Shown: positions 11,426 to 62,073 of the stretch, in pieces
Numbering within the stretch: the stretch's first letter is position 1
Layout: each line of letters starts with the position of its first letter
Assembly: GCA_016180645.1 (NCBI GenBank)
Contig: JACPAV010000005.1
Coordinates: 62,001-126,000, forward strand
From: Nitrospirota bacterium
GTDB lineage: Bacteria > JACPQY01
DNA length: 64,000 bases
Reading direction: 5' to 3'
Position numbers and translations under genes: made by a program
The notes under the pieces: generated by a model
Database searches by the model: none
Seen by the model: the letters and a program-made list of their open reading frames with translations, nothing else
Told to the model about the DNA's origin: nothing

Positions 11426-11477
11426 GCGACCGCTCTTCCTCTAAAGACCCTCCCCCACAAATACACCAACACTCCTC

Positions 11478-11621
11478 GTAGGGGAGCGCCTTCAGGTGCT
11501 CCCAGTTCGGGAGGGTCTAAAGACCCTCCCCTACCCGTAGGGGAGCGCCTTCGGGTGCTCCCAGTTCGGGAGGGTCTAAAGACCCTCCCCTACCCGTAGG
11601 GGAGCATCTTTAGATGCTCCC
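11478..11621. repeat. REP family B tandem doublets (59-bp period)
   Basis: GTAGGGGAG starts at 11478, 11537 and 11596, with inverted partners ending CTCCCCTAC. Confidence 0.9.
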
Positions 11622-11679
11622 TCTTGGATGCTCCCTCTTTCGGGAGGATCAAAACGGAATTTCTGCTATCATGACCCTG

Positions 11680-11910: not shown

Positions 11911-12002
11911 TTCCCCGCGGCGCGGGGATTTAATAGCTCTTCCAATCGCCGTCCTTGGAGCGCAGCGGAAAGGGCGGTGCGGGGACCACGCGGGCTGAAG
12001 CC

Positions 12003-12069
12003 CCATGCCACGGAGGGTATGGGACCATGATATGTCGCCGCACCACGGATGGTGCGGCATGGAACATGG
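12003..12069. mobile_element. 67-bp MITE-like element, copy 1 (CCATG...CATGG ends, CC duplication)
   Basis: Highly similar to 12111-12177; lies inside a REP. Confidence 0.7.
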
Positions 12070-12110
12070 CCCGCGCCTACCAAGGAGCCATTCCTCCGGT
12101 AGCCGCACCC

Positions 12111-12177
12111 CCATGCCAAGGACGGCATGGGGCCATGAAATGTCGCCGCGCCACGGATGGCACGGCATGTAACATGG
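12111..12177. mobile_element. 67-bp MITE-like element, copy 2
   Basis: Same length, ends and CC flanks as copy 1; lies inside a different REP variant. Confidence 0.7.
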
Positions 12178-12204
12178 CCTTTAGGGTGCGTCTTCGGACT
12201 GCGA

Positions 12205-43569: not shown

Positions 43570-43644
43570 GGGTCCCCATTAGTATCCCGCCCCCGCCCGA
43601 TGTCAAGCGTTCCGCAGAAGACGCGCCCGTTCTGCCCAAATCCG

Positions 43645-44254
43645 GTAGCCGCAGGCTTTAGCCTGCGTCCGAAGACACACCCATAAAGGGTGCGCCTACC
43701 AAAAAAACGCGCGAATGTTACAATCGCCCGGTGCGGAGGATACGGGAGCGGAAACATCGCCTACCTCCGGATTCCTACCGCGGACAGGCGGCAGCCAGCT
43801 TCACCCTCTGTATCCAAGATCGCCGATCTATTTTCAACAATCCATTCCCCGTTCCGCGATTCGTGGACATCCTCATGAATTCGCTGCAGAGGCATCTGTG
43901 CGATTCACCAGTGTACCTTTTCATGCCGGACCACATGCATCTGGTGCTCCAGGGAACCTCCGCGCAGTCTGACCTCCGGCAGTGCGTGGTCAGTTTCAAA
44001 CAAGCAAGCGGATTCTGGTTCAGACGAGAGATGGCTGGGATCCGGTGGCAAAAAGACTTCTACGACCACATCCTTCGAAAAGATGAAGATTTGGTGAAAC
44101 ACCTGCGTTATGTCCTCGACAATCCAGTGCGCAAGGGGCTCGTGACGGATTGGAGGGCCTATCCGTTCAAGGGTTCAACGGTTTTCGATCTTGACTCTTG
44201 GTAGTCGCAGGCTTTATGCCTGCGTCCAAGACGCGGGCTGAAGCCCGCGCCTAC
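43645..44254 (+). mobile_element. REPtron: RAYT gene flanked by inverted REP doublets
   Basis: REP doublets at 43645-43699 and 44201-44254 bracket a Y1 HUH transposase gene. Confidence 0.88.
43731..44204 (+). CDS. REP-associated tyrosine transposase (RAYT/TnpA-REP, Y1 HUH family)
   Basis: FTLC, FMPDHMH (HUH), WQKDFYDHILR and YVLDNPVRKGLV. Confidence 0.92.
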   Translation: MRRIRERKHRLPPDSYRGQAAASFTLCIQDRRSIFNNPFPVPRFVDILMNSLQRHLCDSPVYLFMPDHMHLVLQGTSAQSDLRQCVVSFKQASGFWFRREMAGIRWQKDFYDHILRKDEDLVKHLRYVLDNPVRKGLVTDWRAYPFKGSTVFDLDSW

Positions 44255-44276
44255 CAAGAACGTGCCAAGAACAGAA

Positions 44277-61986: not shown

Positions 61987-62073
61987 GGAGAGGTGCGTGA
62001 GCGGTTGAAACGGCACGCCTGGAGAGCGTGTAGGGATTAACGTCTCTCGTGGGTTCAAATCCCACCCTCTCCG
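61987..62073 (+). tRNA. tRNA-Ser(GGA), CCA not encoded
   Basis: Acceptor GGAGAGG/CCTCTCC plus G; anticodon arm CACGC-CT-GGA-GA-GCGTG; long variable arm; T arm GTGGG-TTCAAAT-CCCAC. Confidence 0.95.

Follow-up and report, generated by a model that had tools for sequence, protein, structure and literature searches.

A gene-less two-hairpin element inserted into REP stems in a groundwater bacterium, and its probable movement in trans

Two related 67-bp units were analysed in a 64,000-nucleotide stretch of DNA (hereafter the window; positions 62,001 to 126,000 of contig JACPAV010000005.1, assembly GCA_016180645.1, Nitrospirota bacterium), where each interrupts a repetitive extragenic palindrome (REP). 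They belong to a real, independently inserting, non-autonomous element with about 140 copies in two genomes taken together, whose plan is two tandem hairpins (P1–linker–P2) spanning 64–67 bp in most copies. The insertion site, which lies within a GC-rich stem, consists of CC (in rare cases TC) and then a pyrimidine, a wider range than REPs. That this is a mobile element moved in trans is highly probable. To the whole statement that we favour, namely a trans-moved element served by a single-copy Y1/HUH enzyme resembling the REP-associated tyrosine transposases (RAYTs), we assign a probability of roughly 0.4.

The two window copies and their family

The two units lie between two convergent genes and are identical at 58 of their 67 bases (Table 1). 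The first-pass annotation of the window had placed them at 12003–12069 and 12111–12177, with a CCATG start, a CATGG end and CC on either side, and all of these details were verified. Both fold into P1 and P2 with GGA loops, as it had also claimed, with energies of −34.1 kcal/mol (z = −4.1) for unit 1 and −33.0 kcal/mol (z = −3.1) for unit 2. Its further claim, that an intact REP is recovered upon removal of a unit together with one CC, was borne out for two hosts in opposite orientation: the first becomes a reverse-strand REP, in which a perfect 7-bp stem closes the loop TGAA and CCTACC comes next, and the second becomes GGTAGCC followed by a perfect 7-bp stem with loop TTTA, i.e. a forward REP. 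In host REP 1 the insertion point is three bases into the 3' arm, and in host REP 2 it is where the 5' arm meets the loop. The 20-base pattern of hairpin 1 was found twice in the window, compared with 0.11 occurrences expected, and at least two occurrences were obtained in 0 of 100 shuffles. Copy 1 is a member of a young subfamily ("u1"), with identical copies on contigs C13, C24 and C30, and the subfamily of copy 2 has forward REPs as its usual host.

Table 1. Positions of the element copies, their host REPs and associated features within the window.
Feature	Position	Strand	Description
Element copy 1	12003..12069	+	67 bp; P1 1–20 with loop ACGGAG; linker GA; P2 23–67, comprising CCATG/CATGG base, inner 9-bp stem and loop CGGA
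Element copy 2	12111..12177	+	67 bp; architecture of copy 1; linker GG; loops AAGGAC and CGGA
CC dinucleotide left of copy 1	12001..12002	+	
CC dinucleotide right of copy 1	12070..12071	+	
CC dinucleotide left of copy 2	12109..12110	+	
CC dinucleotide right of copy 2	12178..12179	+	
Host REP 1, left part	11987..12002	-	GTAG-type; 5' arm, loop TGAA, first 3 bases of 3' arm
Host REP 1, right part	12072..12081	-	Remaining 3' arm and CCTACC tail (complement of GGTAGG)
Host REP 2, left part	12098..12110	+	GTAG-type; GGTAGCC and 5' arm ending in CCC
Host REP 2, right part	12180..12199	+	Loop TTTA, 3' arm, REP tail
Empty REP	44229..44255	-	Hairpin and tail as in host REP 1; paralogous empty site beside the window RAYT gene
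RAYT gene	43731..44201	+	157 aa; NF047646, 88.0 bits (cut-off 80); candidate trans-acting enzyme

The 4.72-Mb draft assembly was searched by iterated nhmmer, which returned 80 matches, 66 of them full length and comprising 56 distinct sequences. The many further copies share the ends and flanks of the window pair, which rules out a local duplication of that pair. A covariance model built from the 56 distinct full-length copies, in which both hairpins co-vary, yielded 79 matches in the own genome, 67 in a sister genome and 0 in 59 other genomes. The sister genome, a groundwater "Nitrospirae" bin that is 84% complete, is the only other one of the same phylum in GTDB, which lists just two species genomes for it, and both derive from groundwater metagenomes. 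All species genomes were also scanned with two patterns. The one from the middle of the element gave 50 stretches, ten of them real (nine in the sister genome and one on a contig of a "Planctomycetota" bin), and the left-end pattern gave 49 stretches, 47 of which were run through the covariance model (omitted were L200, on a contig already covered, and L220, a duplicate of L219). Left-end matches in Deltaproteobacteria and Undibacterium were rejected for want of a covariance-model match. The "Planctomycetota" contig, JACPTZ010000178.1 (L104/L131), carries a single copy, the sole match in that bin, whose flanks equal those of the own-genome copy at C17:209245; judged by its sequence, this contig is probably mis-binned.

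The left-end pattern had 0 matches in a scan of JGI metagenomes, the element had no match in plasmid and phage collections, and no Rfam family matched at the units, a weak overlap with Ysr224 (E = 0.32) being taken as chance. In the literature searches made here, no described element of this kind was listed. The public runs containing the stretch are four groundwater DNA runs from one study, with no RNA runs listed. According to these searches, the element family is restricted to one little-known groundwater lineage. One sister-genome copy differs from unit 1 by 1 base in 67 (98.5% identity), and the csrA locus is ~70% identical between the two genomes. Such near-identity across genomes would reflect either an active sequence that has long been tightly constrained, as proposed for the REP doublets forming hairpins (REPINs), or passage of the element between lineages.

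Structure, flanks and target sites

Among the 56 distinct copies, 94.5% of the cells of the two-hairpin structure are paired, compared with 28–53% in slid controls, and compensating changes were found in 9 of the 24 pairs, altered on both sides (62 cells), which was equalled in 0 of 500 shuffles. Three pairs are mostly G–T, which is tolerated on the plus strand only and would give C–A mismatches on the other strand, so it is the plus strand that is under structural constraint. The stem sequences are free to vary, but GGA is retained: of the 66 full-length copies, 65 have it in loop 1 and 62 in loop 2, with the two triplets spaced ~35 bases apart. The terminal inverted repeat is limited to CCATG/CATGG (5 bp). 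P2 is preceded on its 5' side by GGGG or GGGA, and GTAG is present on neither consensus strand. On the bottom strand, the linker region is CATGG-YC-CCATGCC in every copy, the same word that a joint of right and left ends would have, so the two strands give near-identical hairpins that differ mainly in having GGA or TCC loops. A pattern for head-to-tail joints of the element matched only the bottom strand of ordinary copies.

Sister-genome forms are mostly 64 bases long, some being 76 bases. Both genomes also contain forms of 135–150 bases with extra hairpins, some with TCC loops, inside the outer CCATG/CATGG stem of P2; these long variants, with two extra hairpins inside P2, are found at C32:34905-35040, C5:34345-34480 and C18:142488-142620 in the own genome and at L185, L197, L203 and L212 in the sister genome. 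They may represent an older form ancestral to those of 64–67 bases. At C18:158101-158127, a lone P1 with linker and five further bases stands between two CCs, in a hairpin host that elsewhere bears a full copy, and may be an internally deleted copy.

The two-base flanks match in 63 of the 66 full-length copies of the own genome (CC/CC in 59, TC/TC in 4, mixed in 3); in the 41 copies fetched from the sister genome, they are CC/CC in 36, TC/TC in 1 and mixed in 3, and one copy is cut by a contig end. A TC on the left is associated with a TC on the right (Fisher p = 3.4e-5), and the three sites of one divergent subfamily, mutually unrelated and spread over both genomes, are all TC/TC, so the flanking dinucleotide is both matched and inherited. 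Base −1 is C at all 66 sites and base −2 is C at 61 and T at 5. Base +1 is T at 41 and C at 25, never a purine, and this includes all 19 sites outside REPs. Positions −12 to −3 and +2 to +12 are variable among sites, and the orientation of the element relative to the asymmetric YC|Y site is fixed (66/66). Two interpretations of the repeated YC are open: it may be a duplication, or the second YC may be the final two bases of the element itself.

A perfect hairpin (stem ≥6, loop 3–7) was found at 51 of the 66 reconstructed sites and at 301 of 4000 intergenic CC|Y sites, a descriptive comparison, as the copies are not independent events. The geometry is of two main kinds: 27 copies follow the pattern GG–hairpin top–CC|, which resembles the right end of the element itself, and 15 follow CC|–loop–GG, which resembles its left end. 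The hosts are reverse GTAG REPs in 30 cases, forward GTAG REPs in 13, a second REP family in 4 and other, mostly hairpin contexts in 19, so that 47 of the 66 copies reside inside REPs of the genome's two RAYT genes. Empty and occupied pattern counts were 122 vs 23 for one REP type and ~82 vs 14 for another, with palindromic patterns scored on both strands, which corresponds to a REP occupancy of roughly 15%. The initial description of a non-autonomous element targeting REPs thus holds with respect to its many copies, constant ends, matched flanks and the presence of occupied REPs beside many empty ones, and requires widening with respect to the target.

At three sister-genome loci (L139, L140 and L153), the element is nested within a two-hairpin relative whose P2 base is CCACG/CGTGG, where it occupies the GGA loop and points the opposite way, so the family is able to land in its own relatives. 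Within the window, members of the second REP family are clustered in tandem at positions 11440–11660; this repeat, rather than an RNA gene, accounts for odd matches to microRNA-type Rfam families at 11498–11668 and for the very high summed contig depth.

Independent movement and candidate enzymes

Insertions occur in at least a dozen unrelated contexts, and the second REP family has been struck in both orientations. Identical elements reside in REP variants that differ 5–7 bases from the joint, and diversity among 16 young copies is 0.026 in the element vs 0.145 and 0.058 in the flanking REP, sequence evidence that the REPs predate the elements they harbour. Empty REPs were inspected for footprints in the form of a doubled CC, which yielded one doubtful case among 121 pattern matches, 0 among 166 and 0 among 46.

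No gene-bearing copy was found, as in both genomes each left end is followed by a right end no more than 150 bases away; lone ends sought by regular expression in the own genome (5 left and 9 right extra matches) were divergent short variants or chance. A transposase-bearing element with the same ends, which the first-pass annotation had proposed to look for, was likewise found in neither genome, and the own assembly has no multi-copy transposase genes. There are seven Y1/HUH genes in the own genome and eight in the sister genome. The former set consists of two RAYTs, both above the cut-off of the RAYT model, and five longer proteins that contain a DnaA-C-like helix-turn-helix and lie each within inverted repeats of their own. 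The window RAYT (Table 1) has GTAG-type REP doublets on both sides (43644–43700 and 44200–44255), of the type invaded by both window copies. The second RAYT is on the same contig outside the window (C25:35023-35490) and is flanked by a different REP family beginning GTAGGGGAG. The REPs that flank these two RAYTs are the main hosts of the element.

The genes for Y1 with the DnaA-C-like helix-turn-helix form ~1.0-kb units with 22–25-bp inverted repeats beginning TGGGGTCAAG (L008:900-1915, L178:278-1293, L006:1427-2479 and L179:853-1904). They are 88% identical between the genomes, in different places, compared with only ~70% for the csrA locus, and look like an insertion-sequence type of their own.

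The element integrates in one fixed orientation at YC|Y, usually CC followed by T or C, a site base-paired in a GC-rich stem near its loop and located mainly in REPs of the two RAYT genes, and YC stands on both sides after insertion. Because the dinucleotide is matched left and right and inherited by subfamily, we infer a joined or excised intermediate that would keep one copy of it, with a target chosen that has the same dinucleotide. A single-copy enzyme would act in trans, as RAYTs are thought to move REPINs, and the likeliest would be one of the seven or eight Y1/HUH (RAYT-like) single-strand DNA transposases, cutting C|Y beside a folded hairpin. The GGA loops would mark the active strand, the opposite strand presenting the near-identical hairpins with TCC loops. 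This assignment is favoured by recognition of structure on one strand, by the diversity of targets and by a single-copy trans arrangement as found with REPINs. It is also favoured by analogy, in that both joints are C|Y and would resemble the C|T cut described for RAYTs. Single-stranded REPs are cleaved by RAYTs at C|T, the cut lying to either the 5' or the 3' side of the hairpin, and cutting shifts to CC when the guide is altered to GTGG (PMC8266576).

Several observations weigh against the Y1/HUH assignment. The top strand of the element lies on the G-rich strand in 34 vs 23 cases as judged by contig-level GC skew (p = 0.18), which is strong and uniform along contigs, and in 40 vs 26 cases by local skew; there is thus no replication-strand bias, and IS200/IS605 elements are reportedly strongly biased in this respect. 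Classic HUH transposons leave no duplication, which makes the element atypical and its matched −2 base dependent on an extra rule. One such rule, in which the linker G(G/A) pairs with the flanks as a guide, was tried and was not significant (p = 0.30), a GA linker being present in 3 of 4 TC-flanked and in 23 of 59 CC-flanked copies. A GTAG tag is missing from the element, and in its commonest host the event would take place on the strand opposite the GTAG of the REP, which the RAYTs of E. coli and S. maltophilia neither bind nor cut (PMC8266576). Element ends were found beside none of the Y1, IS110 and resolvase genes, so no Y1 gene is flanked by the element in the way that RAYTs are by REPs; when the covariance model was applied unfiltered beside the 15 Y1 genes, it gave one full copy only, 1.3 kb away and with another gene between. 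Against independent insertion as such, all members of a subfamily share a single REP type, position and orientation (30/30 and 13/13), which fits passive co-amplification or else some form of specificity. Neither a polymorphism between empty and occupied sites nor a circle joint could be seen in public contigs, which break at repeats, so that this result is neutral as to movement.

The next most likely explanation is that an IS110/IS1111-type (DEDD) recombinase moves a minimal end-to-end module, by analogy with ISPpu9 and its ssr9 module in Pseudomonas REPs, with CC as the core dinucleotide common to donor joint and target and the REP stem-loop aiding recognition. Such an enzyme would account for a dinucleotide that is matched and inherited by subfamily, for orientation-specific insertion, for REPs as targets, for the lack of replication-strand bias, as expected for double-stranded recombination, and for the lack of excision footprints in empty REPs; moreover, each genome has one gene of the family. 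There are two precedents: ISPpu9 has AG at both ends, inserts into REPs and gives rise to circles of ssr9 alone (PMC12288879), and in ISPpu10 a CT is duplicated and the stem-loop of the target co-varies (bioRxiv 10.64898/2026.03.19.712850). Conversely, the sites share only YC|Y in at least 15 different left and right contexts, a poor fit to one bridge-RNA target, and three REP classes plus 19 other contexts lack a conserved target of ~14 bases. In addition, the pyrimidine at +1 in 66/66 copies is left unexplained, and internal hairpins that co-vary freely would be superfluous for bridge-RNA pairing. The two IS110-family genes are single-copy, lie outside REPs and lack element ends, and their non-coding flanks contain no excess of joint or target words. 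The link to IS110 elements suggested early on therefore survives as an analogy, grounded in the matched core dinucleotide and fixed orientation: neither gene carries the ends, and the sites have nothing beyond YC|Y in common.

Only 6 bases separate the IS110-family gene at L003:1378-2589 from the stop codon of the regulator gene before it, which leaves no room for an upstream bridge RNA. Some 430 bases downstream of the IS110-family gene (L003:3020-3095) is an AT-rich, CATG-rich palindrome of ~70 bases. A match to the word GGGGCCATGG downstream of this gene is within chance and part of that unrelated palindrome. An origin from IS607, a serine transposase with a GG core, was also considered and rejected: the small serine recombinase (TnpA) was not found and TnpB is absent from both genomes. 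The resolvase domain had two matches in the own genome, in frames of 498 and 2450 aa, and none in the sister genome (84% complete).

A more specific form of the Y1/HUH proposal, which we regard as speculative and rather unlikely as a whole, is that the element is a hyperparasite of the REP–RAYT system and a minimal single-strand substrate complete in itself, whose hairpins would recruit the host Y1/HUH enzyme, whose GGA loops would set the strand and whose flanking or linker dinucleotide would program that of the target. If true, this would make it a 67-base programmable, structure-guided transposon without a gene of its own.

An RNA role, compatible with any mode of movement, seems improbable. 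In that reading, which derives from the sequence of the loops, the two GGA loops would bind a CsrA dimer and the copies would serve as regulatory or sponge sites. Nearly all copies retain GGA in both loops in spite of variation in the stems, the loops are similar to the CsrA-binding consensus, and a csrA gene is present in both genomes. Against this, copies between co-directional genes are sense in 13 and antisense in 16 cases (another 13 copies have convergent and 4 have divergent neighbours, all according to our own crude gene calls), so orientation relative to genes is random, which disfavours such a role. Furthermore, the long variants have TCC loops on the same strand, Rfam contains no matching family, and the needs of transposition explain loop conservation equally well. 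The possible CsrA-type RNA role raised by the first-pass annotation is accordingly not supported.

Less likely still is an ordinary miniature inverted-repeat transposable element mobilised by a DDE transposase, with a 2-bp staggered cut preferring CC in hairpin-prone DNA and a gene missing from the drafts. The 2-bp matched flank is what such a cut gives, metagenome drafts often lose insertion sequences, and several copies are at contig ends. However, the terminal inverted repeat of 5 bases falls below the ~10 bp expected, neither genome contains a parent with these ends or a left end without a right end, and orientation to the asymmetric CC is fixed at 66/66. A staggered cut does not predict inheritance of the TC variant by a subfamily, the stems co-vary rather than keep a binding sequence, and the search for doubled-CC footprints speaks against it. 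Least probable of all is that the element seldom or never moves on its own and a few old insertions were passively multiplied with REPs copied by RAYTs or by gene conversion, which would suit the fidelity of each subfamily to its REP type and the 11 sister-genome copies with identical model scores in identical REP halves, but is countered by the 19 copies in contexts sharing only the dinucleotide, by identical elements within divergent REP variants and less diverse than their flanks, by one REP type struck in both orientations and by the element nested in the loop of a relative.

Relation to known systems

The spread of REPs and tiny hairpin repeats is poorly understood, and very few gene-less elements are known to land in REPs. 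The present family provides an unusually clean data set, in which ~140 copies from two genomes, young bursts among them, have exact ends, a strict orientation and a target rule of three bases (YC|Y). Should a Y1/HUH or IS110-type enzyme indeed move it, the element would be among the smallest defined substrates for structure-guided DNA insertion and a natural case of one selfish repeat living on another. On a practical note, nested repeats of this sort cause assemblies to break, and they give rise to spurious reading frames in metagenome-built genomes.

The closest likeness is to REP/REPIN–RAYT systems, which share small, high-copy intergenic hairpin repeats, structure maintained through covariation, copies without a linked gene, a single-copy enzyme thought to act in trans and persistence in related genomes; Y1/HUH genes are present in both genomes here, and the C|N cut of RAYTs beside a hairpin resembles the C|Y joints of the element. 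In contrast to REPs, the element has no GTAG tag and flanks no RAYT, consists of two unlike tandem hairpins rather than an inverted doublet and has the same dinucleotide on both sides. It also sits inside the stems of other REPs and so acts as a REP parasite.

Palindrome-associated transposable elements (PATEs) are miniature IS200/IS605 derivatives with hairpins at their ends and no long terminal inverted repeats. The element resembles them in having a hairpin at each end, a strand-specific structure and Y1 enzymes in the genome, and differs from them in that the feet of its hairpins abut the joints without a spacer, its flanking dinucleotide is matched, and there is neither strand bias nor a parent element. 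IS1397, ISKpn1 and other REP-targeting insertion sequences also insert specifically into REP hairpins near the loop; unlike the gene-less element, they are full insertion sequences with transposase genes and produce 3–4-bp duplications.

In Pseudomonas putida, the ssr9 module of ISPpu9 and ISPpu10 are comparable in that non-coding, end-only modules insert into REPs in one orientation and are moved in trans, with a 2-base core at both ends and target stem-loops that matter (PMC12288879; bioRxiv 10.64898/2026.03.19.712850). By comparison, the present element lacks an IS110 copy bearing its ends, has unrelated targets sharing YC|Y, and is far smaller, with co-varying hairpins. Overall, this is a new family of a known general kind, that of small non-autonomous hairpin repeats, which is set apart by an unusual combination of features: two co-varying GGA hairpins, a dinucleotide that is both matched and inherited, a strict orientation and insertion within the stems of other repeats.

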